Shown piece after piece: positions 1 through 30,043 of a stretch of 32,000 bases of DNA. Source of the DNA: Candidatus Saccharimonadota bacterium (GTDB lineage Bacteria > Pseudomonadota > Alphaproteobacteria > CAJXXZ01 > 1604HC); assembly GCF_008189405.1 (NCBI RefSeq), contig NZ_CP043316.1, positions 570,001 to 602,000 on the forward strand, given 5' to 3'. The notes below the pieces were generated by a model. That model saw only the letters and a program-made list of their open reading frames with translations. It searched no databases and was not told where the DNA came from. How positions within the stretch are numbered: the first letter of the stretch is position 1; each line of letters begins with the position of its first letter. Made by a program: the position numbers and the translations under genes.

Positions 1-1
1 T

Positions 2-490: not shown

Positions 491-537
491 TATGTCTGTA
501 TTAATCCATAAACTTAACAAACCTATATAAGATTAAG
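19..537 (+). repeat. Repeat copy 1 of the family's C-terminal module plus ~40 nt of 3' flank. Inverted partner at 11945..12463; direct partner at ~18323..18763.
   Basis: Direct comparison. Identity to the reverse complement of 11945..12463 starts at nt 19 (tATGttaaatgc) and runs through the stop codon and tgtctgtattaatccataaacttaacaaacctatataa. I saw only a few single-base differences. Confidence 0.9.
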
Positions 538-1951: not shown

Positions 1952-2010
1952 ATTAGTAGATATTGCTAAAAATGCACATATAATATATAGATTAGAGGTA
2001 AAGGAGTTTT

Positions 2011-3528: not shown

Positions 3529-3696
3529 AAAATCTTTTCTTTTTAAATGCATTGAGTGCTTTAATTAGTATTTCATTATCATTGTTTTTTTATCTTTATC
3601 TTATTTATTTAATTTTAACTTTTAATTTTTAACCTGATAATGATTAATCATTATATTTCTATTACAATATGATTTTCTTTATGAAATAATAAAATT

Positions 3697-4677: not shown

Positions 4678-4885
4678 TTGTAAAGAAAATAAAATAATAG
4701 CTGTACAGCATAGTAATAGCGCAATAATTGTAAAATATATTAACAATGAATAGTATAATCGAAATTAATAAGATAAAGTAAAGCTAATATAATTTAATCA
4801 TATAAGATGAAACAGAATAAAATATGTAGGGTAAAGTGCTTACACATTTACTAATAGAAAACTGCTATATGCTTTAATAGCGTAT

Positions 4886-5278
4886 CTATTTAGGTTCATA
4901 ATGTGTCCAATTAGAGAACATGCTATACGCTCTAATAATGTGTCCATCAGGATCTGAAACTGCAAAAGTACGACCATAACATTCATCAGTTGGTTTTTGC
5001 ACAACTTTCACATCAAGCTCATTTTGCCATTTATCAAAAAACACATCTACATCTTCTGTAGATTTCACGTGGATTCCAATTTCAGAAAACCTTACAATAG
5101 AAGTGTCTGGAGTTCTGGTTCCTTCACATATTGCAAATGATGAGTCTGCACCAGCTGCAAATTCTACATAACCAGGGTTAGCAAATACAGGTTTAGCATC
5201 AAACAGCTTTTCATAAAAAGCAGTTGAAGATTCCATATTAGATACATAAATAATTTGTAAATTTGGTCTAATTGTCAT
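4886..5278 (-). CDS. VOC (glyoxalase/bleomycin-resistance/dioxygenase) family protein
   Basis: 130 aa. Start pattern IIYVSNMESSTAFYEKLF and end pattern FAVSDPDGHIIR are typical of small VOC-fold proteins. Confidence 0.7.
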   Translation of the reverse strand: MTIRPNLQIIYVSNMESSTAFYEKLFDAKPVFANPGYVEFAAGADSSFAICEGTRTPDTSIVRFSEIGIHVKSTEDVDVFFDKWQNELDVKVVQKPTDECYGRTFAVSDPDGHIIRAYSMFSNWTHYEPK

Positions 5279-5425
5279 TAAATTTTTTCCTTTGAATTAG
5301 AAATAACACTAATTATACCTTTAAACAAGAGTGCTAAATGTGCAAATAATTGCTTTTCCTCATGGCAAAACATATTCCATTTTAACTAGATATGCATGAA
5401 TATTCATTATTATATATAGATGCAT

Positions 5426-6136
5426 TTAATTTAAAGATGTGATTTCGCTTAAGTTGTTGATAAAAGCTTGCATTGTAAATAATCCTGGGTTTTGATTTAC
5501 AAGCCATTCACATACTTTCAAAGCATCATTTGCATAAATTTTGCGATTAAATACTTGATGCTCAAATCGAATCATTTCTTGATTGTTTAAACCAAGGAAT
5601 TGATGCATAGACATATTATCTCCTGCTCTTAAAGACCATATTTGATCAGCTTGTATTTTATCATGAAGCTGCTTAGTAGTCCCAGATGGATTGTCTGCTT
5701 TGTTTTTATGGTGTACTTCTCCAATTGAAACTGCAAGATTTCTTATTTTATTAATTTTCTCAATAGAAGATTGAATAATACTCCATGAAATTGATGTGTT
5801 TGGAGCCCATAGAATTGGAATAATATTTTGATATGCTTTGTAATCAGATGCAGTATGACTGCCTGTAGTTCCAATAAGGATTGGTATATTGTATTGAACA
5901 GCTGATTTAATATTATTTAATGTGGATTGATGATTGGAGAAATCCAGAATCACATCAGCTCCTTTTTCAATATGATTTGATATCTTTGTATTATTTTGCG
6001 TTAGTGCAACCCCATGATACTGAGTATTTTCCCTAATAACCGCAGAGTGTATTATTATGTTTTGCATTTGAGCAATTTGGATAATAGCTTGACCCATTCT
6101 ACCATTTGCACCTACTATACATATTTTCATAATCAT
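5426..6136 (-). CDS. dapB: 4-hydroxy-tetrahydrodipicolinate reductase
   Basis: MKICIVGANGRMGQ (NAD(P) binding), ILDFSNHQ, IPILIGTTG, APNTSI and EVHHKNKADNPSGTT (E-x-HH-x-x-K-x-D-x-PSGT motif). The start may be the second ATG at 6130. Confidence 0.88.
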   Translation of the reverse strand: MIMKICIVGANGRMGQAIIQIAQMQNIIIHSAVIRENTQYHGVALTQNNTKISNHIEKGADVILDFSNHQSTLNNIKSAVQYNIPILIGTTGSHTASDYKAYQNIIPILWAPNTSISWSIIQSSIEKINKIRNLAVSIGEVHHKNKADNPSGTTKQLHDKIQADQIWSLRAGDNMSMHQFLGLNNQEMIRFEHQVFNRKIYANDALKVCEWLVNQNPGLFTMQAFINNLSEITSLN

Positions 6137-6158
6137 ATTTTAACATCGATCAGATTAT

Positions 6159-6965
6159 ATGCATATGAATTTACATTCAATGTTTTATTATTCAGCTGAT
6201 TCTGTTAAGTTTGATCTAATGATTACAGAATATATATTACATGGCATATTTGAAGCTTTTCCGGTTAGTTCTTCGATGCACTCAATGTTATTTAATTATG
6301 CAATGCAAAATAGCTATGTTATGCAAAATATTGGCATAATTGGGATATTACATGGCATCACAGCAATTGTGACAATTGTATATTTTCATAAAAGTATAAT
6401 TAAGTTATTAATAGATTTTATAAAACCAGGTCATTACAATTTTCTTTCTTGGAAACTATGTTTGATTCTACTACCTAAATTATTATTTGGATTTATTTAC
6501 AGAAATGCGAATTTCCCTTTTTCTTTTTATACAATAATTGCATTTGGACTGCTACTTGCCTTTTATGATATTTATTCCCATCAAAATAAAAAAGCTCATG
6601 AAATATCTTATATGCAGTCTATTTTTATTAGTTTTCTAAGTTTATTTGCATTCTTACCGGGAGCAAGTAGTTTAGGAACTTACTATACAGCTTTTAGAGC
6701 ATGCAACATTAATAGGAAGGAATCTCTTGATTATGCATTTATTTTGAATGTGATCCCATCTATAGGTGCATTTGTGTTAAGATTTACTTATGTTGAAGTA
6801 AATTTAGTACGAATTTTTACTTGCATGTTTGTATACTTATTTGCACTAATTCTTTGTAGAAAATTAATAAATTATTTATATTTGCTAGGTATTTATAGAG
6901 TGATTATAGGAATATGGGTATGTCAAAACATAAATATACAAAAATACTTTTACTGTGCTTTTTAA
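6159..6965 (+). CDS. uppP: Undecaprenyl-diphosphatase (BacA/UppP family), divergent
   Basis: GIFEAFPVSSSMH aligns with the E. coli EGLTEFLPVSSTGH motif. FLPGASSLG...DYAFILNVIPSIGA aligns with WPGFSRSG...EFSFLLAVPMMMGA. Polytopic membrane protein of 268 aa. The 3' end overlaps the next ORF by 52 nt. Confidence 0.72.
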   Translation: MHMNLHSMFYYSADSVKFDLMITEYILHGIFEAFPVSSSMHSMLFNYAMQNSYVMQNIGIIGILHGITAIVTIVYFHKSIIKLLIDFIKPGHYNFLSWKLCLILLPKLLFGFIYRNANFPFSFYTIIAFGLLLAFYDIYSHQNKKAHEISYMQSIFISFLSLFAFLPGASSLGTYYTAFRACNINRKESLDYAFILNVIPSIGAFVLRFTYVEVNLVRIFTCMFVYLFALILCRKLINYLYLLGIYRVIIGIWVCQNINIQKYFYCAF

Positions 6966-8626
6966 TTGTTGGATGTGATAAGAAATCTGATAAGAAAGAA
7001 ACAATTAATTCAAAGATAGCTTCTAGTATACAAAAAGAAGATTGGTATGCAGCCTCGAAGCTGCTTAATTTACATTTAAACATGAAAAGCTCTGCTTCAA
7101 TGCATCTAGCAAATGGTTTTATTTACGATAAACTTGCAAAGCAAGATCCATCCTATGCAGGATTATCAGTTATTGCATATAAAAGAGCATTGAATTTAGA
7201 TCCAAATAATTGGTCTGCTTCATTAGCAATCGGTAAATATTATATGAGAGAACATGATTACTTAAAGGCGATCAGCGCATTTGCAAAGACATTGACTTCT
7301 AATGAAAATAATTTCGAAGCATTATATGGAATGGCAAATGCTGCATATGCAACCAGAAACATTACATTAGCAAAAAATTGCATAGATAAAGCTATTGATT
7401 TACGTGGTGATAATAAATTAGTGAATAGGTTGGCTGCATTGATTTATGCTGCACAAAATAACTCTCGAGCAGATAAATATGCAAATAAATATGCATTTAT
7501 GGAAGATGACTTGTATGAAATTAAATATTTAAGAGACAGGATTCAAGACTGGAAGAAAACTCATAAAAAAATGAGATACAATCCTAATTTCATGAAATCT
7601 TTTGATAGCCCTGATACAAATCAGAAGGATGAAAATATTACAATTGAGTGTGTAATTCTAAGCTTTAATGAGTCAGGTGCATTTTCTCGTGGAAATAATT
7701 TCTTAGAAACTTTACAAGAATTTAAAAGAGATGAATTTACTAAAGGGTTAAGTATCAGAATGGGAAATAACTCACAAGTTGAAACTGGGTTAGCTTCTAG
7801 TCCTGTATATAGTAATAATCAAGATAAGAAATATATATTTGATAATGGGAAATGGATTTTAAGTCCAGATCTGAATGATCATAGTAAATTAATTAAGAAA
7901 GGTTTTTCAATTGGATTTGATAGCATTAGATATAATTTAAATATTCTGAACTCTAGCAGCTCTATAATTGATATAATTTCTAGGCCAATTATGCAGGTTT
8001 CATCAAAAAATGGTAAAGGTGCATTTGATTCTAATGATAAAAGTTTTGTAAATACTGGTGGAGATGTAGGTTCTGCATTATCAAATATTCCATCTGGAGT
8101 AAAGCTAGAAGTTGAAGCAAATCAGGTCGATAAGGACCATATTATGTTAGGTGTAATGTTGGAAATAAGCAAAACAACCTTCAAAAACAACATTGGATCT
8201 CTGAATGATAATGCTAATGTGATTAGTGCTCAATTACAAACACAAATCAAAGCTAAATTAAATGAAACAATGGTTATTGGTGGTGTATATAGTAATGTGA
8301 ATGAATCTTCTAAATCAGGAGTTCCTGGCGCACAAAATATGCCATTATTAGATTTAGTGCTTGCAAATAAAAGTACTCATACTTCTAAAAAGTCTGTAAT
8401 GATGCTATTAACTGCAAAAAACACACAAGAATCTAAAGTGATGGAAGTTGATATTGATCGCATGGAAAACGTTGTTCTATTAAAACAAAGTGAGCCATCA
8501 TTCTTTAAGCACAAATATAATAGAGAAAAAACTATAAAACAACAAGTACATGCATATAGAAGAGAGGATATAAAGTCGCTTAATATATCTAATAATACAA
8601 TACAATCATTTGCTGAAAGAATATAA
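6914..8626 (+). CDS. Lipoprotein with N-terminal TPR repeats fused to a C-terminal secretin domain (type II/III secretion / pilus secretin family)
   Basis: Lipobox LLLCFLIVGC. TPR-like helices: AYKRALNLDPNNWSASLAIGKYYMREHDYLKAISAFAKTL, ALYGMANAAYATRNITLAKNCIDKAIDL. Secretin-like C-terminus: ITIECVILSFNES, IISRPIMQVSS, GVKLEVEANQVDKDHIMLGVMLEIS, NETMVIGGVYSN..SKSGVPG...PLLDLVL, MMLLTAK. Confidence 0.7.
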   Translation: MGMSKHKYTKILLLCFLIVGCDKKSDKKETINSKIASSIQKEDWYAASKLLNLHLNMKSSASMHLANGFIYDKLAKQDPSYAGLSVIAYKRALNLDPNNWSASLAIGKYYMREHDYLKAISAFAKTLTSNENNFEALYGMANAAYATRNITLAKNCIDKAIDLRGDNKLVNRLAALIYAAQNNSRADKYANKYAFMEDDLYEIKYLRDRIQDWKKTHKKMRYNPNFMKSFDSPDTNQKDENITIECVILSFNESGAFSRGNNFLETLQEFKRDEFTKGLSIRMGNNSQVETGLASSPVYSNNQDKKYIFDNGKWILSPDLNDHSKLIKKGFSIGFDSIRYNLNILNSSSSIIDIISRPIMQVSSKNGKGAFDSNDKSFVNTGGDVGSALSNIPSGVKLEVEANQVDKDHIMLGVMLEISKTTFKNNIGSLNDNANVISAQLQTQIKAKLNETMVIGGVYSNVNESSKSGVPGAQNMPLLDLVLANKSTHTSKKSVMMLLTAKNTQESKVMEVDIDRMENVVLLKQSEPSFFKHKYNREKTIKQQVHAYRREDIKSLNISNNTIQSFAERI

Positions 8627-8733
8627 TAAATATGGTTAAATTATATGATATCTGTATAGTGAATTTAACTTAATTTTTGCTCAATAATACATTAAGGGCT
8701 TGATTAACCCAAAATTTATGGTAGATTAGTACC

Positions 8734-10407
8734 ATGAAATGTCATCGTAATATTTTAATTGTTGTTTTTTCGAGTTTTTTAATGTATGATTCCCCTCACG
8801 CTATGGGAGAAGAATTAAATAAAGATACAAATAATATGTGTGCATTTATAGTACAAGCTTTAGAAGGCGATGCTGTACAAAATAGATCAGATCTTGTGAA
8901 CATTCTTAAAGAAACATCTATGGTTATGTTAGAATTAGAAGAAATAAAAGGTAAATTAAGTGGATTATCTTCAAAATTAAGAGGATACGGGTTTGATGAT
9001 CATAAATCAGGAACGGAATCAGAGAAAAAATTAATAGCAAAAGAAGTAGAAGAATCAGTTGATAATCAAGAGAAAACTACTATTTGTGATGAGAATGCAC
9101 CTAATTGCGAATCACAGGAATCACAGGGATTAAGTGATAGTTCTGGTAGTAGCTCTTCAGGTAATACGAGCCCATCACATGATGAAATATCAGATTCTAA
9201 GCAACCAGAAACAGAGCTGGTAGTAGCATCTGAAACAAAAAAAGCAGATAGTCAAGAAACTACCAACTGTAATGAGAATACTACTACATTGCTAGATTCT
9301 AAGAAGGATGTTGCAAGTAGAGCTGTATTAGATGCTTCGACAGAATGTGATGACATAGAAGAACTTGATGCAAAATATAAATATACTAAACCAGAAGAAC
9401 CATATGCTGCATACTATACTACAATTCAGGAAGATATAGAAATATTAAAACACGAAATAATGACAACATATGTAGAAGCTGATAGCATAAAGCAAAAATT
9501 ACAATTGAACCAAAGAGTTGTTAGTATACCTGATCTAAGTAATGCTAGCCTTACTAGCTCTGTTCATGATGTACGTTTCAATGAAATTGATATATCAAAG
9601 ATGCATTATGATCCTAATCACTTTAGACTTCATACATTAGAGTTATACGATTGCACTGGCGTTTCATTGCCTCGTATAGATCTATATGACATTTTTCAAA
9701 TATCTATTATTAACCATTTAGGTTCTGAGATGAATGCAAGTGATTTTTTTATGTTACCTATAGATTTTAATCCTTCAGTAGTAAATATTATAAATAGCAA
9801 TTTAAGTGGTGTGTTTATGGGATTATCAAATACTGTATACAAATTGTTAACATTAAACATATCGCATAATGCACTTAAGAAATTTGAGAAATTCTCAGCA
9901 CCAAAATTACAAGTTTTGAATGGTAATGACAATTCATTTACAAATTTACCATTATATTTAGAAAACTTGCAATATTTATTTTTACAAAACAATCTTATTA
10001 ATAATATTGATTGTGATAATAGTTTGAAATCATTGAGAGTGCTAGATTTAAGTGGCAATAATCTTAGTACCCTGAATAGCAACATATTGAAAATTGGTTC
10101 AATTGCTCCTAATCTTGAAGAATTGCATATAAGTCATAATAAAATGGAAGGGTTTATAGATCTAGGGGATATCCCAAAACTAAGAATACTTAAAGCTTCT
10201 GATAACATCAGATTATCAATTAGATTTAATCGTAATATAGAATATATTGATGTTACTAATACTTACATCATGGAAGTTACTAACTGTCCAGCAGTAGCTT
10301 TCATTACATTTGAATATACCCCTAGCATGGTATCAAGCACTGTAATATCACGTACTGAATCACTTTTAAAATCAGATGAGTTTAAAAAAAAACTAATTGT
10401 GAATTAA
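8734..10407 (+). CDS. Secreted leucine-rich-repeat protein with an acidic/Ser-rich N-terminal half. Possibly the 5' part of a gene split at an A9 tract.
   Basis: Signal-peptide-like start MKCHRNILIVVFSSFLMYDSPHA. LRR consensus runs: LTLNISHNALKKF, LQVLNGNDNSFTNLP, LQYLFLQNNLINNI, LRVLDLSGNNLSTL, LEELHISHNKMEG. Confidence 0.75.
   Translation: MKCHRNILIVVFSSFLMYDSPHAMGEELNKDTNNMCAFIVQALEGDAVQNRSDLVNILKETSMVMLELEEIKGKLSGLSSKLRGYGFDDHKSGTESEKKLIAKEVEESVDNQEKTTICDENAPNCESQESQGLSDSSGSSSSGNTSPSHDEISDSKQPETELVVASETKKADSQETTNCNENTTTLLDSKKDVASRAVLDASTECDDIEELDAKYKYTKPEEPYAAYYTTIQEDIEILKHEIMTTYVEADSIKQKLQLNQRVVSIPDLSNASLTSSVHDVRFNEIDISKMHYDPNHFRLHTLELYDCTGVSLPRIDLYDIFQISIINHLGSEMNASDFFMLPIDFNPSVVNIINSNLSGVFMGLSNTVYKLLTLNISHNALKKFEKFSAPKLQVLNGNDNSFTNLPLYLENLQYLFLQNNLINNIDCDNSLKSLRVLDLSGNNLSTLNSNILKIGSIAPNLEELHISHNKMEGFIDLGDIPKLRILKASDNIRLSIRFNRNIEYIDVTNTYIMEVTNCPAVAFITFEYTPSMVSSTVISRTESLLKSDEFKKKLIVN
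10384..10392 (+). repeat. A9 homopolymer at the 3' end of the first LRR ORF; candidate slippage / frameshift site
   Basis: tttAAAAAAAAActaattgtgaattaa. One extra A places the upstream frame into the frame of ORF 10494..11498. That frame is open from 10386. Confidence 0.9.
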
Positions 10408-10493
10408 TAGACACGCTGAGCAGTGAAGAATCTGATGAAAGTGAAGAACTTGATGAAGATATAGAAAATATACAATTTCTAAAAAATGAGCTA

Positions 10494-11498
10494 ATGGTAA
10501 ATGGAAATAGTATTGGAAATCTTTATGTTGTACGTGGTTGCACAAAAGTAGTACTTAATGATATAAAATTGACAGGAAATAAGTTAAGTATTCTGGATAA
10601 AATTATTAGTATAAATGAGTTAAGATATCTTGATTTAGTGAATTGTGCTTTGACCAAGGCTTTACCTAATATATTTACTTTACAACTATTAGAATGCCTA
10701 TCTTTATCTAATAACAACTTATCAGAAATTGTAATAGCAAAAAAAACACTACCATGTTTAAGAAAGCTTGATTTATCTCGTAATAATTTATCAAAATTCA
10801 GTTGTAGGTTTCTACGACAAATAGAAGATTTGGATTTAAGTAGAAATAAAATTAGTGACCTTAAATATATAAAAAATATGAAAAATCTAGTTTCTTTAAA
10901 TATAGCTAATAATAATATAGATCAATTAGATGATATTGGCGATTTAGTTAATATAGAAATACTTAACTTTGTAAATAATCGTATTTCAAAATTACCATGC
11001 TTAGATGCTCTGCAAAAATTACGTGGATATTATGCACGTAATAATAGGTTTGCATGCATAGAAGAAACTTTCAAACCTATTCATAATATAATTTGTAGGA
11101 AAGTTCCAATAGGCGTAATATATAATCCAGATACTATGAGATATGTTGTGAAATATGGTTATCATCATACAATGAATGATGCTCTATATTACCTTCCCTA
11201 TGAGATGCATATTTGTGGTGGGGATGGAAAAGAATATGATGCAATAGAGAAAGTCTCACATACCGATGACGATAAGATATCTAAATTCAAAAAAGAATAT
11301 AGAGTTGGAATTCCCAATTATAATTCTAAACATAGAATGCAAATACATGGAAATGTAGATAAAGGGATATATGATTTCATTAGTCATTATGTAACTGTGG
11401 ATTGTGTGTATTGTGAAGTCAGTAGTACTAATAGACCCCCATCTAATTATGAAGATAATTTTCAAAACATGCAGAGATGCGCATGCTATGGCTATTAG
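10494..11498 (+). CDS. Leucine-rich-repeat protein with a Cys/His-rich non-LRR C-terminal domain. Possibly the 3' part of the split gene.
   Basis: LRR runs: LRYLDLVNCALTKALP, LECLSLSNNNLSEI, LRKLDLSRNNLSKF, IEDLDLSRNKISDL, LVSLNIANNNIDQL, IEILNFVNNRISKLP. No signal peptide. The frame is open 108 nt upstream of the ATG and encodes an acidic stretch (SSEESDESEELDEDIENIQFLKNEL). Confidence 0.72.
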   Translation: MVNGNSIGNLYVVRGCTKVVLNDIKLTGNKLSILDKIISINELRYLDLVNCALTKALPNIFTLQLLECLSLSNNNLSEIVIAKKTLPCLRKLDLSRNNLSKFSCRFLRQIEDLDLSRNKISDLKYIKNMKNLVSLNIANNNIDQLDDIGDLVNIEILNFVNNRISKLPCLDALQKLRGYYARNNRFACIEETFKPIHNIICRKVPIGVIYNPDTMRYVVKYGYHHTMNDALYYLPYEMHICGGDGKEYDAIEKVSHTDDDKISKFKKEYRVGIPNYNSKHRMQIHGNVDKGIYDFISHYVTVDCVYCEVSSTNRPPSNYEDNFQNMQRCACYGY

Positions 11499-11991
11499 AT
11501 TTGTTTATCATTAGTAATTATGCATCTTGATATTTATTCGTAATGTTTTTTATTATGCCTTATAATACCATTTTCAATTAATAAATTAAACTTAAGTTAC
11601 TTTGAATCGCAATCATTTATACCAGAAGATTAGATTAACTATATAAAAATATTAGATCTTTGAAGCAGTTGGTTGAAAGGTTTATACATATAATAAGATC
11701 ATAGTTAGTTAGGATAGCAATGAGAGAAGGGAATTATTTCTACTGCTAATAGTTATGACCATTTGATGTTATGACAATATATATCATCATAAGGTAAATG
11801 GATGGGATGAATAATTTAGAATATCTATACATTATGCTGCTTCGATTGCCTAAAAATGTATTTTCAATAATCTCAATTAATAAATCATAGTATTATATAC
11901 TATTATAAACTAATCCTATATATCAATAACGTAATAACATTTTTCTTAATATTATATAGGTTTGTTAAGTTTATGGATTAATACAGACACA

Positions 11992-12462
11992 TTATTGCAG
12001 GGATTTGATTTTTTCGTTTGAGATTGCATTTAGTTTCTCAATGTCTGAAGATTCTAGTTTTAACATGCCCTCTAATGCGTCCTTTGCACTGTTCATGAAG
12101 TCTCGCCCTCTAGCATTCTCCTTGTATTCTGCCCATCTTAAGAACAAGAAGTTTCCAAAGATCTCTCCCATCATGTCCTTATCACCTTCGTATCCATTCA
12201 GCAATTCCTCTGCTCTGTCAAACAAGTGTACGATATAATCCTCATGATCACGTTCCTTCGCAAGCTTAGCAGCTTCTTCTTTTCTTAATGCTGTAACAGC
12301 CTTGTCTCCATCAGATTTTGCATACCAGTCAGCATAATCCTTCTTGAAAAACTCAACGTCACCTCTACGCTCCTCCCCGGGATAATATGCTTGGAATTTT
12401 CGGTCTCCTCCTCCATTTCCAACTTTATAATAAAGCTTACTCCTAATAATTGCATTTAACAT
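11992..12462 (-). CDS. Stand-alone C-terminal module of the family (copy 2), with its own ribosome-binding site
   Basis: The 156 aa from ATG 12462 are identical to copy 1. AAGGAGG (12478..12472) lies 9 nt upstream of that ATG. The track's longer ORF (to 12498) adds 12 aa that overlap the upstream ORF. Confidence 0.65.
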   Translation of the reverse strand: MLNAIIRSKLYYKVGNGGGDRKFQAYYPGEERRGDVEFFKKDYADWYAKSDGDKAVTALRKEEAAKLAKERDHEDYIVHLFDRAEELLNGYEGDKDMMGEIFGNFLFLRWAEYKENARGRDFMNSAKDALEGMLKLESSDIEKLNAISNEKIKSLQ

Positions 12463-13327
12463 ACTTATCAGCCTCCTTAAAATGCTTTTGCATAGCATTC
12501 CCTACCTTGACAGTTCTAATTACATTCCAAGATGCATCCTGTCTAACAACCTCATCAAGCATGATTTTAAATTTCTCCAAGCCTTTTGCCGCCTCAACTG
12601 CCATCTTCTTTAACGCAATATGCTTTGCAATGTTTGTAAAATGTTCCTTGTCTTTTGATAGGGATTGTAAAATAGTTGCATTAACCTTTGCTGCTTCCGC
12701 TTTATCGCTCAGCATCGATAATCCTGGATTTTCTAGGTTGTACTCATATATTGAATTGTAGTACAAACTATGAGCTTCCAACCTATCTGATTCTAAGTCC
12801 CAATCAACTTCTAATGTTCCATTTTGAGACCTGTCAGCAAGATATACAGCATTTTTGAATACATCACCATCCATGTCATAGTTACCATACGCATCTGCTA
12901 ACTCCGCATAGCGAGTACTCTGCTTCATTATGTAAGAACGGGACTCATAAACGTATCGCAACATGGCATATTCAGTAGCTTGCTCATCCTTTAAATTATT
13001 TAGTTGTTCTTGCAACTCTTCTTCACTATATTTAGATAATGATTCTATGTATTCATCTTCATCATCTTGGTTAATCATTTGCATATATACGATTGATTTA
13101 CACTTATTATCTGTAAGATCTTTAACAACTTCTTTAGTTCCATCAAGTACAGTTTGATAAAACTCATCATCTCTACATTCTAAATTAGATTCCTCCAGCT
13201 CTATTGCTAAAGATTGATCAGATTTCTTCAAACAATATGCAAATTTACTTGTGCATTCCGTTAATTCTGGGCCATTTGCCATAACTGATAAGCATAATAC
13301 CAGCGATAAAATTCTTAGATTCTTCAT
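12443..13327 (-). CDS. Secreted protein, N-terminal part of the family: signal peptide, variable acidic segment and conserved core. Truncated relative to the 532-aa paralogue.
   Basis: MKNLRILSLVLCLSVMANG signal peptide. Residues 120-268 differ at only 5 of 149 positions from residues 116-264 of ORF 17156..18754. The ORF ends (KYVKCNY*) where the out-of-frame C-terminal module begins. Confidence 0.7.
   Translation of the reverse strand: MKNLRILSLVLCLSVMANGPELTECTSKFAYCLKKSDQSLAIELEESNLECRDDEFYQTVLDGTKEVVKDLTDNKCKSIVYMQMINQDDEDEYIESLSKYSEEELQEQLNNLKDEQATEYAMLRYVYESRSYIMKQSTRYAELADAYGNYDMDGDVFKNAVYLADRSQNGTLEVDWDLESDRLEAHSLYYNSIYEYNLENPGLSMLSDKAEAAKVNATILQSLSKDKEHFTNIAKHIALKKMAVEAAKGLEKFKIMLDEVVRQDASWNVIRTVKVGNAMQKHFKEADKYVKCNY
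12472..12478 (-). promoter_or_regulatory. Shine-Dalgarno sequence (AAGGAGG) for the stand-alone C-terminal module, embedded in the end of the upstream ORF
   Basis: Minus-strand sequence ttAAGGAGGctgataagtATGttaaat. Other genes in the window use comparable SD sites (aaggag, aggagg, aaggaga). Confidence 0.55.
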
Positions 13328-13384
13328 ATATCTCCCTTATAAATTGATTTATTATGTTATATTTACACCTAAATAACAAGAGAT
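13328..13384 (-). promoter_or_regulatory. Conserved 5' leader / promoter-proximal region and SD of family locus A
   Basis: Minus strand: atctcttgttatttaggtgtaaatataacataataaatcaatttataagggagatatATG. Locus B: atcttgttatttaaggatagatggaacataataagtcaatttataagggagatatATG. Confidence 0.5.
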
Positions 13385-13474
13385 TTTGCAGGAAAACCTA
13401 CCTGAAATAGGCATAATTTATATAATATTTAGGTAGCAATCTTATAGAGTGTACTATTTCTAATAATAATTATC

Positions 13475-14020
13475 CTAATCGAATATTTCTTCTTTTATCA
13501 CTTTCCCACCCATATCAAACTGCTTCCATATTCCTGATTTATTTCCATCTATGTATTGTCCAAATTCTAGAATATTAGATGATTTTGGGTGATATGTAAT
13601 AGAATTTCCGTAAAGTAAATCATCTTTATAATTCTCTTCTTTGACTAAATACCCTTTTCCAAATATGAAAAATGCTCCATGTTTTTTATTATCCTTATAT
13701 GCTCCTATTTGCGATAAATTACGATTCTCAAATATATACATAGCGCCATCTGGTTTTTCACCCTTATAGTTCATGATCAAACTTAATTCACCATTTTTAT
13801 AAATTTCTACAACTCCATCAATTTTCCCATCTTTATAATTGACTCTTTGTGCAATGGATCCATTTTTATAATATATGCTCTCTCCATTTCGCACGCCATC
13901 TTTCAATATATGCTTCTCAACAACTTTTCCATCAATCACAACTTCTTCAAATTGTTGCTCTGGAATTTCTTCAGTTTTACAGTTCAATTCATGCTTTTTT
14001 ATAATCTGCTCAATATTCAT
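13475..14020 (-). CDS. MORN-variant repeat protein (YwqK-like / MORN_2-type repeats), translationally coupled to vgrG
   Basis: Repeats of the Y-x-N/D-G-x-x-x-G type: YYKNGSIAQRVNYKDGKIDGVVEIYKNGELSLIMNYKGEKPDGAMYIF...AYKDNKKHGAFFIF...YKDDLLYGNSITY...YIDGNKSGIWKQF. No signal peptide. Its ATG overlaps the vgrG stop (cTAATGaat). Confidence 0.75.
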   Translation of the reverse strand: MNIEQIIKKHELNCKTEEIPEQQFEEVVIDGKVVEKHILKDGVRNGESIYYKNGSIAQRVNYKDGKIDGVVEIYKNGELSLIMNYKGEKPDGAMYIFENRNLSQIGAYKDNKKHGAFFIFGKGYLVKEENYKDDLLYGNSITYHPKSSNILEFGQYIDGNKSGIWKQFDMGGKVIKEEIFD

Positions 14021-17000
14021 TAGTTTAAATTCACCATTCCTGCTTTTATATTAATCATTGCTGATGCTTCAATATCTGCTGTTGTATCACTTTTTAGCGC
14101 CACAATTCCTCCTTTTAAGTTTAAATTACCCCCAGCTTCCAAAGTTAGGTTTCCTCCAGATTTAATTGTAAAATTGCTAGATGCCTTATATGTAATCTGA
14201 TTTGCTTCAATTTCCATATTTCCTCCTGAGATTTTGATAGTATGATTTCCACTATTAATCGTTATATCTTTGTTCCCGGAAATTTCTTCTTTACTATTAC
14301 CATTCCCTAGATTTATTTCCATATTCCCTTTAGAAATTTCGATATTCATATTTCCATCCTGAAGTGTAATTTCTTTATTTCCCTTGTTTAAATCTAATTT
14401 ATAATTACCTTCCTCAATTTTCGTAATCATATCTCCATTTTTGAGCTCAGTGAGGAAATGCTTCGCTTCCTCTGATTCTAATTTAATCTCTTTGTTCCCT
14501 TTTTTGATGATTAATATATCATTTCCTTCTCCATCTGTAGGTTCATCTTCCCCAGACAATTCTACCTTTCGATCTCCACGCCCAATAATCAATTCTGAAG
14601 ATCCAGTTTGAATTGTAGAGCTTTTACCATCTTTAATAATTTCCTCATAATCTTTCTCAGCATGCAAAAATATTTTTTCTTCATTTGCTTTGTCCTCAAA
14701 GCTAAATTCATTGAATCCACGCTCTTCGCCTTCTTCAACATCTTTTAGCGATTCTGTTTTTAGGCCAGTTTTCGAAATAACATCTTCAGTTTCAACCAGA
14801 TTATACGGTGGCATTGTAGTTCTATTATATAAGCACCCTGTAATAATTGGGTAATTTGGATTCCCATTTTCGAATGAAATTACAACTTCTTGCCCTATAC
14901 GAGGAACAAAAAATCCTCCCCATTCATTTCCAGCGCCTCCCCATTGCGCAACACGAATCCATACAGCTTGCTGCAGCATCTCTCCATTACTCAAATTCTT
15001 TCTCCCATTATCCCAATGGAAATAAACTTTCACTTGCCCTAGGTGATTTGTATAGATTTTCTGATCCTCTCCACCAACAACAATTCCTGTCTGAATTCCT
15101 GCAATTTTCCTGTATGGCTCAGGTTTGACTTTAAATGGTTGATCAATTTTCGAAAACACGGCGCTATTTTCATAGTGTAAAACCATATCATCCAAATCTA
15201 CAGTAGCATCATCCATATTTTTATCCACAGCCTGATATTCTAATTTATGAGAAACTCGCTTTACATAATACTGCCCATTCATCTCAATATCTGGGTGATG
15301 CGTAAGAACAAACTTGTATCCAGGGCTAACTTCCTGACGAAAAGTTTTTGTATGATATTCTGTCTCACTTGTATCTGCATGTTGATTGCATATTCCATTA
15401 TATTCTTTCACTTTTTGATCTGAGGTAAATGTTTCGCTATAATGATCATCCACATCGCTAGCAGAACTCTCTGATGAATTTGCCCCAGAGGAATTTTCAA
15501 CTTCATGAATTATATTGCGCTTTTCAGGGTCAAGATCTGGGTTGAATCCTTGAAGTTGGGTGGAATTAGGGGCATATTTATGTGCAACATTCCATTGCGA
15601 GATATATTTATCGTTACGACCCTCCAATCCAGTTGTTGTATAATGCAAAGGACGAGAATCGGTGAATGGGTCGGACATATCAAAAACTTTTGAAACAGCT
15701 CCATCTTCTACAGCCCCTTTCCCCTTAGATTGCGATTCAGCAACAATTTGCGTGTCAAAACCATCGTCGAAAATACTCATTTCTCCACTTTGTACGGAAG
15801 TATAGGCGTTCGCTCCTTTGGAGGCTAACTCTCCTGTGGGGCTATAGTTTTCAATGGCATTTTCATACCCTAAATATGTTTTATATGGCGAGGGAGATGA
15901 GGAAGCAGAAGGAGAAACACTACCTGATTCATCAGCAATTTCTGCACCATCTCCAGAATTAAACCCAGCCAAATCATCTTCCTCTTCCTCGTCATCCGCA
16001 TCATAGTTAGCATCTGCACTATCTGACACATCTGCTCCCTGAGGATTATTATAAAACACAATCCCTGTATGCACGTCCGTATGCTCAAAACAATAATAAA
16101 CCCCAAAATCCCTACACAACCGATTCAATAACTCCCAATCCGTCTCCTCATACTGCACTATATATTCAGGAAAATCCTCCTGTTCACTCTTAGCAAAATT
16201 TGTCTGATCATCATAATTCAAATATTTACTCCTTGGATTCTCAATCGCAGCCATACGATATTGTGCATCCAAAATACTCATATTAATATCAATAATTACC
16301 TTATCATAATGATTATCATGCTGGTCATTCTTTGCCTCAAATTCATCTATTTGAATTTCATAATCATCTGATTGTGATTCATAATTTCCATGTATGGCAA
16401 CTAATTCTGAAGTTCTATCTTTTGATTTTTCATCTTTTAAAGTTATATTATTTTTCTTTATTAATCTTTCAATAATATTTGCCATTAATTTTGACTTGTT
16501 AAATATGATATCTTGATTTTGCTCAACTGGTGCGTCATCTACAGATGGATAGAAAATACGATTACGTTTTGTGCCTAATTTAAATTGCATTTCAGGAATC
16601 ATGCTAAACCCATAAACATAATATTGCTCTTCCTTAGTTGGGGTTTTTATTCCTAAATATGTCCATTCATTGATTATTCCATGCCAATATTTTCTATCAA
16701 TATTTGGCTTGCCAACACTTAAGCCCATGTGCATTTTTTTACTAATCATATTTGGTTTTTTCTCAAAAAATGCAACTTCTCCTTGAATAAAGAATGGTTG
16801 AGATAACCCTTCCTCTATATTAACTTTATAAACTCTCCCTAAATGACGTTTATATCTTCTATCTTCATCAGTTTTAGGTTGCCATTGATCATAACCTAAG
16901 GTCGCTAATCCAATCATTTCAAAATCAGAATTATCTTCAACCTTTTGGTTATGCTTATAAGTATTATTATAATCTTCTTCTAAGGTATAATCTTTTTTTT

Positions 17001-17025
17001 CGAGCTCTTCAGGCATTTGAGACAA
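14020..17025 (-). CDS. vgrG: Type VI secretion system spike protein VgrG (gp27-like plus gp5-like plus beta-helical C-terminus), with large insertions
   Basis: IVQYEETDWELLNRLCRDFGVYYCFEH; YKFVLTHHPDIEMNGQYYVKRVSH; KIAGIQTGIVVGGEDQKIYTNHLGQVKVYFHWDNGR...VWIRVAQWGGAGNEWGGFFVPRIGQEVVISFENGNPNYPIITGCLYN...PPYNL. C-terminal degenerate repeats: GNKEITLQDGNMNIEISKGNMEINLGNGN...GNHTIKISGGNMEIEAN. The first codon at 17025 is TTG; the first ATG is at 17016. Confidence 0.9.
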   Translation of the reverse strand: MSQMPEELEKKDYTLEEDYNNTYKHNQKVEDNSDFEMIGLATLGYDQWQPKTDEDRRYKRHLGRVYKVNIEEGLSQPFFIQGEVAFFEKKPNMISKKMHMGLSVGKPNIDRKYWHGIINEWTYLGIKTPTKEEQYYVYGFSMIPEMQFKLGTKRNRIFYPSVDDAPVEQNQDIIFNKSKLMANIIERLIKKNNITLKDEKSKDRTSELVAIHGNYESQSDDYEIQIDEFEAKNDQHDNHYDKVIIDINMSILDAQYRMAAIENPRSKYLNYDDQTNFAKSEQEDFPEYIVQYEETDWELLNRLCRDFGVYYCFEHTDVHTGIVFYNNPQGADVSDSADANYDADDEEEEDDLAGFNSGDGAEIADESGSVSPSASSSPSPYKTYLGYENAIENYSPTGELASKGANAYTSVQSGEMSIFDDGFDTQIVAESQSKGKGAVEDGAVSKVFDMSDPFTDSRPLHYTTTGLEGRNDKYISQWNVAHKYAPNSTQLQGFNPDLDPEKRNIIHEVENSSGANSSESSASDVDDHYSETFTSDQKVKEYNGICNQHADTSETEYHTKTFRQEVSPGYKFVLTHHPDIEMNGQYYVKRVSHKLEYQAVDKNMDDATVDLDDMVLHYENSAVFSKIDQPFKVKPEPYRKIAGIQTGIVVGGEDQKIYTNHLGQVKVYFHWDNGRKNLSNGEMLQQAVWIRVAQWGGAGNEWGGFFVPRIGQEVVISFENGNPNYPIITGCLYNRTTMPPYNLVETEDVISKTGLKTESLKDVEEGEERGFNEFSFEDKANEEKIFLHAEKDYEEIIKDGKSSTIQTGSSELIIGRGDRKVELSGEDEPTDGEGNDILIIKKGNKEIKLESEEAKHFLTELKNGDMITKIEEGNYKLDLNKGNKEITLQDGNMNIEISKGNMEINLGNGNSKEEISGNKDITINSGNHTIKISGGNMEIEANQITYKASSNFTIKSGGNLTLEAGGNLNLKGGIVALKSDTTADIEASAMINIKAGMVNLN

Positions 17026-17100
17026 TATATGAGATGATGGTTAATATTCTCTTAAAATTATGCTGGGCTTTCCTACAATTTATTAATAAACACCACATAA

Positions 17101-17155
17101 ATCTTGTTATTTAAGGATAGATGGAACATAATAAGTCAATTTATAAGGGAGATAT
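17101..17155 (+). promoter_or_regulatory. Conserved 5' leader / promoter-proximal region and SD of family locus B, within the divergent vgrG intergenic region
   Basis: About 80-85% identical to the equivalent 57 nt upstream of locus A. SD aagggaga lies 5 nt before the ATG. Confidence 0.5.
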
Positions 17156-18754
17156 ATGAAGAATCTAAAAATCTTATCATTACTATTATGTTTATCAGTT
17201 ATGGCAAATGGCCCAGAATTAACGGAATGTACAAGTAAGTTTGCGTATTGTTTGAAGAGTCCTGGTCGCGCAACGGAAGTTGCTGTGCCAAATATGGGTG
17301 CACAGGTTCTCACTGATGCCGTATATAAAAAGAGATACGATATAGTAAAGGGTGCAATTCCATCAATAGATGAAGAGAAGTGCAAATATCTTGTATATAC
17401 AATGATTATTAATAGAAAAAGCAAACCAGAATATGTTAAGAAAATAGGTGAGAATACAGTTGAGCAATTGTTTGCAGGTTTATCCAATGCGGATAAATCA
17501 TATGCCATGCTGCGATACGTTTATGAATCTCGTCCTTACATAATGAAGCAGAGTGCTCGCTATGCGGAGTTAGCAGATGCGTATGGTAACTATGACATGG
17601 ATGGGGATGTGTTCAAGAATGCTATGTATTTGGCAGAGAGATCTCAAAATGGAACCTTAGAAGTTGATTGGGACTTAGAGTCAGATAGGCTAGAAGCTCA
17701 TAGTTTGTATTATAACTCGATATATGAGTACAACCTAGAAAATCCAGGATTATCGATGATTAGTGACAAAGCAGAAGCAGCAAAGGTTAATGCAACTATT
17801 TTACAATCCCTATCAAAAGACAAGGAACATTTTACAAACATTGCAAAGCATATTGCATTAAAGAAGATGGCAGTTGAGGCAGCTAAGGGGTTAGAGAAAT
17901 TTAAAATCATGCTTGATGAGGTTGTAAGGCAGGATGCGTCTTGGAATATGGTTCATATAGTTCAGATGAACAAGGCTGCACAAAAGCATTTTAAAGATAC
18001 TCAACTTTATTTAGATGATTTGGTAGGCGTAGAAATAACTATGTCAGATCTGAGATCAATTAAGAATGTCCAAGGTGGATATGTAGTTATTTTTGGCGAT
18101 AAAGACAAAGTAAAATTTGATGAGATTATAGAATTATTTAATACAGATAGGGAAAAATGCAAAGAGCTTATTTGGGAAAGAATAGTAGCGGGAGAAGAAT
18201 ATATAAACAAATATATAGTGAAGCCTATGTTTGATAAGCTCTTTAATGAGATGGAAAAGATGGACAAAGAAGTATTGCAAGAGGTAATAAATAGATCACG
18301 TAAAGAGAAAGTTTGGGGTGAAGTAGGAAATAGGGGAGGAGGAAAGAAGTTTCGCGCATACTACCCAGGAGAGGAGCGTCGAGGTGACGTTGAGTTCTTC
18401 AAGAAGGATTATGCTGACTGGTATGCAAAATCTGATGGAGACAAGGCTGTTACAGCATTAAGAAAAGAGGAAGCTGCTAAGCTTGCGAAGGAGCGTGATC
18501 ATGAGGATTATATCGTACACTTGTTTGACAGAGCAGAGGAATTGCTGAATGGGTACGAAGGTGATAAGGACGTCATGGGAGAGATCTTTGGAAACTTCTT
18601 GTTCTTAAGATGGGCAGAATACAAAGAGAATGCTAGAGGGCGAGACTTCATGAACAGTGCAAAGGATGCCCTAGAAGGTATGTTAAAACTAGAATCTTCA
18701 GACATTGAGAAACTAAATGCAATCTCAAACGAAAAAATCAAATCCCTGCAATAA
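17156..18754 (+). CDS. Secreted protein, full-length member of the family: signal peptide, variable segment, conserved core, ~100-aa unique linker and C-terminal module
   Basis: 532 aa. MKNLKILSLLLCLSVMANG signal peptide. The core YAMLRYVYESR...VVRQDASWN is shared with ORF 12443..13327. The C-terminal ~140 aa are shared with the two other copies; differences include DKDVMG vs DKDMMG and GNRGGGKKFRAYY vs GNGGGDRKFQAYY. Confidence 0.8.
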   Translation: MKNLKILSLLLCLSVMANGPELTECTSKFAYCLKSPGRATEVAVPNMGAQVLTDAVYKKRYDIVKGAIPSIDEEKCKYLVYTMIINRKSKPEYVKKIGENTVEQLFAGLSNADKSYAMLRYVYESRPYIMKQSARYAELADAYGNYDMDGDVFKNAMYLAERSQNGTLEVDWDLESDRLEAHSLYYNSIYEYNLENPGLSMISDKAEAAKVNATILQSLSKDKEHFTNIAKHIALKKMAVEAAKGLEKFKIMLDEVVRQDASWNMVHIVQMNKAAQKHFKDTQLYLDDLVGVEITMSDLRSIKNVQGGYVVIFGDKDKVKFDEIIELFNTDREKCKELIWERIVAGEEYINKYIVKPMFDKLFNEMEKMDKEVLQEVINRSRKEKVWGEVGNRGGGKKFRAYYPGEERRGDVEFFKKDYADWYAKSDGDKAVTALRKEEAAKLAKERDHEDYIVHLFDRAEELLNGYEGDKDVMGEIFGNFLFLRWAEYKENARGRDFMNSAKDALEGMLKLESSDIEKLNAISNEKIKSLQ

Positions 18755-19202
18755 TGTGTCTGTTTTGATGTGAGTTCAATTGCTAAGAGAGATTGATAAT
18801 CAAGCGCCTATTTTACAGCAATATATATTATCAAAATCGTTTGTTTGCATAATTAATCATATTTTTATAAAACTAATTTGCCTCAAATTTATATAATAAT
18901 CTATCAATATAGAATTACAAATTAAGCATAGAACAATAAAGCAAGTTGATAGTATTGATATACATTATAGATTAGTACAATGGAAGGTCTCTAATATAAT
19001 TTTTGATTATGACTATTAGCATATTACCAATATGTTTGGCCATGAATAAATTATAGCTAATATATCAATGATTATCATAATTTTAATATTATATGAAATT
19101 ATTAGCATATATTCACAAGTATATAACAGATTTATACAAATACGATATTAAATTATTACTTAACTGTACATGAAAATATTACTATAAAAAGCATTGCTTC
19201 AA

Positions 19203-23506: not shown

Positions 23507-23578
23507 GGCCGAGTGGCAGAATGGTTTATGCAGAGGATTGCAAATCCTTTTATGTCGGTTCGATTCCGGTCTCGGCCT
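23507..23578 (+). tRNA. tRNA-Cys (anticodon GCA)
   Basis: Hand-folded cloverleaf. Acceptor stem GGCCGAG/CTCGGCC. Anticodon stem GAGGA/TCCTT with loop TTGCAAA. T-arm GTCGG-TTCGATT-CCGGT. D-stem has a 13:22 G-A mismatch. The discriminator is U, as expected for tRNA-Cys. No encoded CCA. Confidence 0.92.
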
Positions 23579-28401: not shown

Positions 28402-28606
28402 TTAGCATAACAAAATACACTCCCACATTTTAACAATTAATTCATACTCAATCAAGCTTTTGATTGACATTTAAATAATAATTAAATATTCAAACTGTGC
28501 AGCCAATATATTTTTATATTGTGTAATATATTTTCTAAATGCACATGTGTACGCTTGCTGATTGAATAAAGTATATAATTTATGTAAAATTCTTATAGGA
28601 GAAATA

Positions 28607-30043
28607 GTGAAAGAAATTAAAAATAGTGAAAAAACTTCTACAAATAATATTAATGACATTGGGGCAAAATCCGATATGTGCTGTGATCATAACTCAGTAG
28701 AAAAATGTTGTGATAGCAGTTCAATCGAACAATGTTGTGATATTGATTCAATAAATAATGAAAATAAAGCATGCTGCTCAAGTGAAGCTACATGTAAACC
28801 TTCATACTTATCTACAAATCAATCAAATTCAAGCAATGCCGTATATTTGGATTACAGCGCTACAACACCATGTGACCCTAAGGTAGTGGATGCGATATGT
28901 GAAAGTTATCAATGCTTTGGTAATCCTCATTCAATAACCCATCAATATGGATGGGATGCTACGGATCTTGTTGAAACTAGCCGTAAGAAAATTGCAAGCA
29001 TTATCAAATCTGATTCGAAAGAGCTAATATTTACTTCTGGAGCAACAGAATCTAATAATATATCTATTCAAGGCGTTGTGAAAAGCAGGCAAGAGAATGG
29101 GGTAAGTGATATGCATATCATAACCACAAATATAGAGCACAAAGCCACTTTAGAAACATGCCATGAACTGGAACAAAATGGGATCAAAGTAACATATCTA
29201 TCAGTTGAAGCAAATGGATTGCTAGATTTACAAAAATTCCATGATGCTATCCAAAAAAACACAGTATTAGCATCTATAGGATGGGTAAACTCAGAGCTTG
29301 GAACAATTCAACCGATTAAGGCCATTGGTGAAATATGCAAAGAAAAAGGCATATTACTACATGTTGATGCTGCACAAGCATTAGGTAGAATCAAAATTGA
29401 CTTAAGTGATATACATGTAAATTTAATGAGCTTTTCTGCCCATAAATTCTATGGACCAAAAGGAATAGGCGCACTATATATCAAAAGGAAAACTAAAGTT
29501 TCTCCTATTGTGTTTGGTGGAAGACAAGAAAAAGGAATTAGATCTGGGACAGTTCCTGTACAACTATGTGTTGGAATGGCAAAAGCAGCAGAAATTGTAG
29601 AAGAATCACGCGAAGATGAATATGTAAGGATGCAAAGATTACAAAAGAAAACCTTAGATCGCATCACATCATCCTTGGAAGATATATATGTCAATGGAGA
29701 TTTGGATCAAAGAGTTCCACATAATATGAATATTAGCTTTGCATATATCGAAGGGGAAGCATTGATGATGAAATTGAAAAATTATGCTATGTCATCTGCT
29801 TCTGCATGCTCATCAACTACATTACAACCATCTTATGTGTTAGATGCGATTGGAATAGATGAAAATCTAATTCATACATCACTAAGGATTGTAATGGGAA
29901 GGTATACAACTGAAGAAGATATGGATAATTTTACAAATGATATTATAAAAGCTGTGAATGACTTAAGAGATATGAGCCCACTTTGGGATATGAAGAAATC
30001 AGGCGTTGACCTAAAGAAGGTTAAATGGCATACACACCACTAA
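28607..30043 (+). CDS. iscS: Cysteine desulfurase IscS with a Cys-rich N-terminal extension
   Basis: VYLDYSATTPCDP, PLP-lysine segment FSAHKFYGPKGIGALY, catalytic loop SSASACSS, and C-terminal WHTHH. The track ORF starts at a TTG (28562). GTG 28607 is preceded by aggaga. The first ATG is 28676. Confidence 0.9.
   Translation: MKEIKNSEKTSTNNINDIGAKSDMCCDHNSVEKCCDSSSIEQCCDIDSINNENKACCSSEATCKPSYLSTNQSNSSNAVYLDYSATTPCDPKVVDAICESYQCFGNPHSITHQYGWDATDLVETSRKKIASIIKSDSKELIFTSGATESNNISIQGVVKSRQENGVSDMHIITTNIEHKATLETCHELEQNGIKVTYLSVEANGLLDLQKFHDAIQKNTVLASIGWVNSELGTIQPIKAIGEICKEKGILLHVDAAQALGRIKIDLSDIHVNLMSFSAHKFYGPKGIGALYIKRKTKVSPIVFGGRQEKGIRSGTVPVQLCVGMAKAAEIVEESREDEYVRMQRLQKKTLDRITSSLEDIYVNGDLDQRVPHNMNISFAYIEGEALMMKLKNYAMSSASACSSTTLQPSYVLDAIGIDENLIHTSLRIVMGRYTTEEDMDNFTNDIIKAVNDLRDMSPLWDMKKSGVDLKKVKWHTHH

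Follow-up and report, generated by a model that had tools for sequence, protein, structure and literature searches.

A type VI secretion-linked family of three paralogous genes with probable concerted evolution in Candidatus Cytomitobacter primus

Inverted duplicate genes of the tufA/tufB type in enterobacteria evolve in concert by RecA-dependent gene conversion, and recombination between them inverts the chromosome segment that lies in between. Paralogous families of envelope or secreted proteins with hypervariable regions occur in obligate intracellular bacteria, as in the msp2/p44 genes of Anaplasma and the wsp genes of Wolbachia. Here we describe three paralogous genes, named X, Y and Z, that share features with both kinds of system. 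They were found through a C-terminal module repeated in a stretch of 32,000 nucleotides (nt) of contig NZ_CP043316.1 (positions 570,001 to 602,000, hereafter the window). The source is Candidatus Cytomitobacter primus, a member of the Holosporaceae that lives as an endosymbiont in the protist Diplonema japonicum YPF1604 and has a 622-kb genome. In this bacterium the module forms the C-terminus of each of three paralogues, and its copies are probably kept alike by gene conversion and purifying selection. As we read the evidence, X, Y and Z are an undescribed, clade-restricted family linked to the type VI secretion system (T6SS) and under concerted evolution, which is otherwise an ordinary phenomenon.

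The repeated module and its full-length carriers

The module is present at 20..490 (+), 11992..12463 (-) and 18323..18754 (+), and the translations of 2..490, 11992..12462 and 18323..18754 agree with the sequence reported in the first-pass annotation. A triple occurrence of this kind is far from chance. Copy 1 is the 3' end of X (1..490, +), where residues 375-536 of P0002 were matched at 100%. P0002 is the complete product of X (536 amino acids, aa), and its final 162 residues correspond exactly to window 2..487. The module of copy 1 begins near nt 57 and its stop codon is at 488..490; the remainder of X lies outside the window. Copy 2 (11942..12463, -) comprises the last 12 linker codons, the module and a 3' flank. 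With 99% identity, copies 1 and 2 make up an inverted repeat of 522 nt (19-540 and 11942-12463), which continues for about 50 nt beyond the stop codon into a 3' flank common to both (491..540, +). Copy 3 (18321..18754, +) is made up of the C-terminal 144 codons of Z and the stop codon.

Translation showed that copies 1 and 2 encode identical 156-aa open reading frames (ORFs), as first described. Exactly three silent third-position differences separate them near the 3' end (GAT/GAC, CTG/CTA and GAA/GAG), and one further difference is located 3' of the stop codon. The DNA of copy 3 is 92-93% identical to that of copies 1 and 2. Its drift, likewise described as largely silent, amounts to 21-22 synonymous versus 7 non-synonymous differences, the latter giving 5 amino-acid changes, of which 4 fall within the 5' border (GNRGGGKKFR/GNGGGDRKFQ). 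Comparison of copy 3 with copies 1 and 2 by the Nei-Gojobori method gave a synonymous divergence (dS) of ~0.31, a non-synonymous divergence (dN) of 0.021 and a ratio (omega) of ~0.06 for the module, a sign of purifying selection, in support of the earlier suggestion that it is kept by selection. Every copy also contains, on the opposite strand, an open frame of 77 codons with a TTG start (244..477, -; 12005..12238, +; 18508..18741, -). This ORF is probably a by-product, because the local GC content is higher and stop codons are hence fewer.

A word search with the 532-aa product of Z (P0001) against 5.8 billion proteins returned only three clusters, namely Z, P0002 (X) and P0003. The 294-aa ORF P0003 and the 156-aa module ORF exist only in the short-read assembly of the genome (622,357 bp). 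Y (P0005, 535 aa) is intact only in a HiFi assembly (622,378 bp), and X and Z are found in both. The three proteins follow a common plan of signal peptide, variable cassette (aa ~35-125), central domain, linker and module. Since P0002, P0005 and Z are intact and have one architecture, all three module copies are the C-termini of full-length paralogues.

The plan is complete in the window for Z. Conserved upstream DNA (17102..17155, +), a repeat shared with Y, contains a weak sigma-70-like site at 17104-17132, which is a consensus match only and showed no enrichment over shuffles. Residues 1-34 (17156..17257, +) form a predicted Sec-type signal peptide (MKNLKILSLLLCLSVMA, with NG following the putative cleavage site) and a conserved, Cys-containing N-terminus. 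The variable cassette of Z (aa 35-115; 17258..17500, +) has 22-27% identity among X, Y and Z, and dS is saturated. The central domain (17501..17997, +) is ~91% identical to those of X and Y at the protein level, with an omega of ~0.13. In the linker (17998..18320, +) X equals Y and Z is strongly diverged (dS 1.44), with an FNTDR.KCKE island as the conserved exception.

Y is represented in the window by its N-terminal 290 codons (12443..13327, -; the 294-aa ORF P0003), which hold the signal peptide, cassette and central domain. Conserved promoter and 5' untranslated DNA lies upstream (13328..13414, -), ~54 nt of it common with Z and ~87 nt with X. The window at 13225..13414 matches the HiFi locus (L001, from OX638200.1) at 97%. 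The first-pass annotation had described the modules as attached to different upstream sequences and had taken them for a mobile, domain-level element; neither claim held. The DNA 5' of copy 2 (12464..13381) is homologous to the copy-3 gene at 17102..17997, with 87-89% identity. Alignment of 17050..18800 (+) with 11950..13440 (-) passed through shared upstream DNA, the signal peptide, a diverged stretch and the central block, and then across a gap of ~270 nt into the module. All three carriers are homologous full-length genes that share signal peptide, central domain and promoter-proximal DNA. No module on another scaffold was detected in an exhaustive HMMER scan of 1.84 billion representative proteins, and no further carrier was found in the 5.8 billion-protein word search or in genome scans of GTDB. 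What was found is essentially the outcome that the first-pass annotation had itself set against its proposal, one multiplied gene lacking independent N-terminal partners, with the nuance that the duplication appears old and homogenised and not recent.

The window belongs to an assembly (GCA_008189405.1) made from MiSeq reads with SPAdes only. The HiFi assembly used for comparison (OX638200.1; GCA_951805245.1) is from the same host strain, and its order is tssL-tssM-tssA-X(+), an 11.4-kb segment, Y(-), MORN(-), vgrG(-), Z(+) and pyrG. The 11.4-kb segment contains two leucine-rich-repeat (LRR) genes, the secretin gene, uppP, dapB, a glyoxalase-family gene, asd, tlc and an S1-like gene. When the window was compared with the OX638200.1 loci by BLAST, identity was 100% throughout, yet window 1..12463 was inverted; 1992..12463 corresponds to L001 21611..11140 at 100%. 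Window 11942..12463 (-) and the 3' end of the HiFi copy of X match each other at 100% identity. For the DNA to the left of the window, queries with P0003 and with the S1-like neighbour led to nothing or to the HiFi assembly alone.

The out-of-frame junction noticed earlier before copy 2 does exist in the window (12457..12463, -). Sequence from Y extends to 12457 and sequence from X begins at 12463, so that the two share 7 nt. Intact genes carry TATGTTA at both ends of the linker, 272 nt apart; in the window a single TATGTTA is left, the intervening 272 nt are missing and the frame is shifted. This deletion is limited to the short-read assembly. In the HiFi assembly X and Y are 100% identical over ~1,000 nt. 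Because a perfect repeat of this length exceeds what MiSeq reads can bridge, the inversion and the deletion are possibly products of assembly. We lean towards an assembly artefact, with a substantial chance of real heterogeneity or isomers.

Relatives and the pattern of conservation along the genes

A HMMER search with the X/Y/Z profile against the same 1.84 billion representatives added only P0011 (E = 7e-13) and P0012 (E = 3.5e-6), and these match profile positions 1-260 only. They are encoded in two ~620-kb metagenome-assembled genomes (MAGs) named "Rickettsiales bacterium", OZ247489 and OZ247501. The word-indexed protein search with the family profile returned only C. primus proteins; a first GTDB genome scan, of a collection that does not include the source genome, gave no relatives and a second returned only the two known MAGs. 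The locus in OZ247489 reads 574aa(-), vgrG(+), MORN(+), other ORFs, 542aa(+), and that in OZ247501 reads 558aa(-), MORN(-), vgrG(-), 556aa(+). In C. indipagum, the VgrG orthologue is flanked by a 431-aa (+) and a 432-aa (-) gene that match X and Y by BLAST (E down to 8e-17). Across the family, BLAST E-values to proteins of C. indipagum, OZ247489 and OZ247501 were 1e-7 to 1e-24, and inverted homologue pairs are located around vgrG and MORN in all three of these related ~620-kb genomes.

Relics of the vgrG 5' end adjoin the second paralogue in C. indipagum (L004 13799..14404, -; E = 9e-41 to C. primus VgrG) and in OZ247489 (L006 9607..9903, -; E = 2e-12). The ancestral inverted duplication therefore took the whole gene together with neighbouring DNA, part of vgrG included. 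The inverted synteny common to these genomes suggests a duplication older than the divergence of the genera.

Profile-profile comparison aligned X, Y and Z with the four MAG proteins over their full length (E = 2e-20), an alignment that owes its strength to the N-terminal half, and homologues in other genera can be detected for the central domain only. For the module alone, local alignment with the C-termini of the OZ247489 proteins reached z-scores of 3.9-4.8 (0-4 of 500 shuffles reached the score). Alignments with proteins of OZ247501, C. indipagum and CP060235 were not significant, nor was hhalign of the module alone against the MAG protein C-termini (P = 0.13). Judged by these alignments, the module is probably a fast-evolving C-terminal domain of the family.

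Two candidates could not be shown to be members. One is a 441-aa VgrG neighbour with a signal peptide in MAG CP060235. The other is a 194-aa ORF that follows MORN in OZ247489 (L006 9038..9622, +; hmmsearch E = 3 in a search space of 1 million). This ORF starts with a family-like signal peptide (MKYLRNIFLLLCL) and may be a decayed family member.

In the four genomes, paralogues of the same genome show 90-100% identity in three regions, namely the 5' end together with 50-90 nt of upstream DNA, the central domain and the C-terminus; between genomes, identity is 12-40%. Paralogues are thus far more alike within a genome than homologues are between genomes, though the duplication appears to predate speciation. 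As shown by column-wise identity matrices and sliding DNA identity, the cassette behaves differently; its identity within a genome (22-44%) is no better than that between genera (12-33%). The same contrast is seen at silent sites. Between X and Y, dS is 0 in the linker, 0.04 in the module, 0.09 in the central domain and 1.2 in the cassette. The X-Z comparison gives 0.31 for the module, 0.46 for the central domain, 1.44 for the linker and 0.9 for the cassette, and silent divergence of module versus linker differs significantly (Fisher p = 2e-6). Cassette dS among paralogues is 0.9-2.3 and saturated, and cassette omega is 0.4-0.9. Silent divergence hence ranges from 0 to 2.3 along one gene, next to a ~1,000-nt tract in which X and Y are identical, and identity continues into the upstream and downstream non-coding DNA.

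Contrasts of this kind at silent sites cannot arise from selection on the protein, but unequal times since the last homogenisation by recombination can cause them. The uneven dS, the identity within genomes and the identical tracts agree with the earlier proposal of gene conversion, and the uniformity of the module appears best explained by gene conversion together with purifying selection. The module is not special in this respect, as the central domain is equally homogenised; the unusual element is the cassette, which escapes conversion.

The following course of events would account for the pattern. An ancestral gene would have been duplicated long ago. Homologous recombination by RecA/RecFOR would then have copied stretches between the paralogues repeatedly, while purifying selection purged amino-acid changes, so that module, central domain and 5' end stayed alike. 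The cassette (aa ~35-125) would have evaded conversion and remained distinct, and the same repeats would be able to invert the DNA between them. RecA/RecFOR, none of which is encoded in the window, and MutSL are reportedly retained in these genomes (bioRxiv 10.1101/719211).

GC content at third codon positions (GC3) is 35-42% in the two blocks common to all three paralogues (57..490, 11992..12971, 17501..17997 and 18321..18754), compared with 17-26% in 14 other genes of the window and 16-28% in the cassette and linker of X, Y and Z. The raised GC3 of converted blocks was absent from the MAG pairs. GC-biased gene conversion is a possible explanation, as it would fit the raised GC3.

An alternative to old duplication with conversion is that each lineage triplicated the gene recently, and that cassette and linker then diverged fast under positive selection. 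The identity of X and Y over ~1 kb, the high omega of the cassette and the presence of X as an extra copy in C. primus only would all be expected in that case. Positive selection, however, cannot raise dS, and the cassette is saturated against flanks of 0.04-0.5. The inverted pair stands around vgrG-MORN in four genomes, with proteins only 20-40% identical, which places the duplication before the split, and the X cassette is equally distant from those of Y and Z. We regard recent triplication as highly improbable. An autonomous ~140-aa domain that moves between genes and joins varied N-terminal partners in the manner of polymorphic toxins is almost certainly not the explanation: the sharp bounds of the high-identity module, the different linker before it in Z and the junction before copy 2 in the window would suit it, but signal peptide, central domain and promoter are homologous in all three upstream regions, the junction reflects the loss of 272 nt from a paralogue that is complete in other respects and uninterrupted in the HiFi assembly, the 1.84 billion representatives hold no other carrier, and the central domain is an equally sharp block.

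T6SS neighbourhood and possible function

X is located after tssL-tssM-tssA, Y follows vgrG and the MORN gene, and Z is divergent from vgrG. The vgrG gene (14020..17025, -) encodes a T6SS spike protein of 1001 aa with Phage_GPD, Phage_base_V and Gp5_trimer_C domains (TIGR03361, 1.5e-82). It has a TTG start. The Phage_GPD region of its product is interrupted at about aa 330-400 by an acidic, Ser-rich insertion, and the protein ends in an extension of ~170 residues of GN-rich repeats with no enzymatic domain. Between vgrG and Y lies a gene for a MORN-repeat (YwqK-like) protein of 181 aa without a signal peptide (13475..14020, -), with a weak match to MORN_2; it was annotated as a YwqK-family immunity protein by George et al. 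(bioRxiv 10.1101/719211). The T6SS is conserved in almost all sequenced Holosporales genomes, and no effector, secreted substrate or accessory factor is known for that of Holosporaceae or Holosporales (PMC11909080). Family genes adjoin vgrG or other T6SS genes in four genomes, as would a T6SS effector. Since no other non-structural gene accompanies vgrG as consistently in the Cytomitobacter clade, the family is a concrete candidate for such a T6SS factor.

By inspection, all nine members have a Sec-type signal, with a basic n-region, a hydrophobic core of 8-12 residues and a small-x-small site. The sequence identifies the N-terminus as a predicted Sec signal, not a transmembrane anchor or a lipobox, with a putative cleavage site. 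No family match was found in Pfam, NCBIfam or PADLOC for the module, the full proteins or 10 family candidates at E up to 1, a profile search of PDB sequences gave no match at E up to 10, and Foldseek against PDB gave no meaningful fold match (best E 1.8). The first-pass annotation had recognised no described domain in the module, and none emerged from Pfam, NCBIfam, PDB sequences or PDB folds. It had also predicted a helical module. AlphaFold2 models are indeed all-helical, though of low confidence: the predicted local distance difference test (pLDDT) was 42 with 3 sequences and 50 with 5 sequences, and only aa 52-180 were confident (pLDDT 70-90).

We tentatively suggest that the X, Y and Z proteins may be exported by the Sec pathway and may work together with VgrG and MORN, either in the envelope or beyond the cell, and that the choice of partner may depend on the cassette. 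This proposal is somewhat doubtful, and two other functions have to be weighed beside it.

The proteins could instead be cargo effectors loaded on VgrG, with MORN as adaptor or chaperone and the hydrophobic N-terminus as an uncleaved membrane-insertion helix. The order of vgrG, small protein and large unknown protein is the classic effector layout, the vgrG-MORN association is kept in four genomes, and the Holosporaceae T6SS lacks a known effector (PMC11909080). However, the 8-12-residue core with its small-x-small site is typical of a cleaved Sec signal, and an N-terminus of this kind would argue against cytoplasmic loading. No T6SS loading or marker domain (PAAR, Rhs, DUF4150, MIX-type) and no toxin domain was detected in 10 members at E up to 1. 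The variation is N-proximal and not in a C-terminal toxin, and Z and X are not downstream of vgrG. We consider this role unlikely.

It is decidedly unlikely that the family consists of periplasmic immunity proteins against a T6SS toxin, with cassettes that match different toxin alleles, a role that might matter because one host harbours two symbiont species. A Sec signal and multiple paralogues with a variable region beside vgrG would be in keeping with immunity, and interbacterial roles of the T6SS were proposed by George et al. No toxin gene is adjacent, however, VgrG has no enzymatic extension, proteins of 430-570 aa are large for immunity proteins, and MORN/YwqK is already the annotated immunity candidate.

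A substitute for TssJ was also considered. The N-terminus has no lipobox (LLLC followed by LSVMANG), NCBIfam gave no match, and the proteins are three times the size of TssJ, are predicted to be all-helical and vary between paralogues. The missing lipobox and the variation among paralogues make this role unlikely.

In its most far-reaching form, the proposed envelope or extracellular role would make the family the missing partner or cargo of the Holosporaceae T6SS, which has no recognisable Hcp or TssJ. After export by Sec, the proteins would be taken up by VgrG-MORN, the ancient hypervariable cassette would determine specificity or self-recognition between co-resident symbionts, and the rest would be homogenised by GC-biased conversion, which would explain the doubled GC3 in a genome of 30% GC. 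This scheme is very unlikely to be right in full.

Several observations count against a Sec-exported, VgrG-associated family shaped by conversion. Conversion was deduced from the sequence pattern, and no event was observed directly. The polarised differences between X and Y (5 versus 7 sites) are too few to use, and the trans-species grouping of cassette types is weak. The sole inversion seen is that of a short-read assembly relative to a HiFi assembly and may be an assembly error. Homology of the module beyond C. primus is marginal, given the z-scores obtained for OZ247489 only and the hhalign result. The functional proposal draws on gene neighbourhood and N-terminal sequence only, with models at the low pLDDT given above, and a Sec signal is unusual for a protein loaded on VgrG.

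Other features of the window were recorded. The secretin gene (6914..8626, +) encodes a lipobox-like N-terminus (LIVGC) and tetratricopeptide repeats fused directly to the Secretin domain, and looks like the pilotin-like/secretin fusion of a reduced type II secretion or type IV pilus apparatus. Two LRR proteins are encoded between this gene and copy 2 (8734..10407, + and 10494..11498, +), one of them with a signal-peptide-like start and an acidic, Ser-rich region. They are candidate host-interaction proteins and were already remarked on by George et al. An IscS-like cysteine desulfurase (28562..30043, +) has an N-terminal extension of ~90 residues that is rich in CC motifs (MCCDHNSVEKCCDSSSIEQCCD...). 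Rfam and tRNA scans revealed only a tRNA-Cys (23507..23578), which is unrelated to the family.

Significance and comparison with known systems

As these results show, a C-terminal block that recurs within a window can be the exposed end of complete paralogous genes, the rest of which lies off the window or behind an assembly lesion. The repeats of X and Y gave rise to disagreement, or to real isomerism, between two public assemblies, and a 0.6-Mb endosymbiont genome described as stable still shows concerted evolution of inverted paralogues. These results should be useful to specialists on Holosporales symbionts.

The family resembles vgrG-linked accessory islands, which consist of vgrG, an adaptor or chaperone, an effector and an immunity gene, in that it stands beside vgrG and a small MORN partner in every genome examined. 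It differs from them in its Sec signal, in the lack of PAAR, Rhs, DUF4123, DUF1795, DUF2169 and toxin domains, and in having inverted copies on both sides of vgrG.

Conserved and diverged parts of the paralogues meet at sharp boundaries, and one copy in the window is truncated; both features recall the cassettes of polymorphic toxin, Rhs and contact-dependent inhibition systems. In those systems the N-terminus is constant and the C-terminus varies. In X, Y and Z, by contrast, the variable block is N-proximal, and the constant C-terminus is the most conserved block, with no toxin domain recognisable by Pfam, NCBIfam, PDB or Foldseek; nor do these genes form a toxin/immunity pair.

With msp2/p44 and wsp the family shares flanks homogenised by recombination around a hypervariable block, signal peptides and the intracellular lifestyle of the bacteria. 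Unlike these families, it has only two or three full-length, expressed-looking copies, each with its own promoter region, and no pseudogene donor pool. It has no sequence relationship to them and is tightly linked to T6SS genes.

As in tufA/tufB, X, Y and Z are inverted and near-identical, with long perfect tracts and conversion that extends slightly beyond the coding sequence. The segment between X and Y has opposite orientations in the two assemblies, which would recall the inversions at tufA/tufB unless it is an assembly error. Unlike tufA/tufB, they are of unknown function and number three, and their conversion is mosaic, sparing a very old cassette in all of them and the linker in Z. This pattern is repeated in four endosymbionts with reduced genomes.

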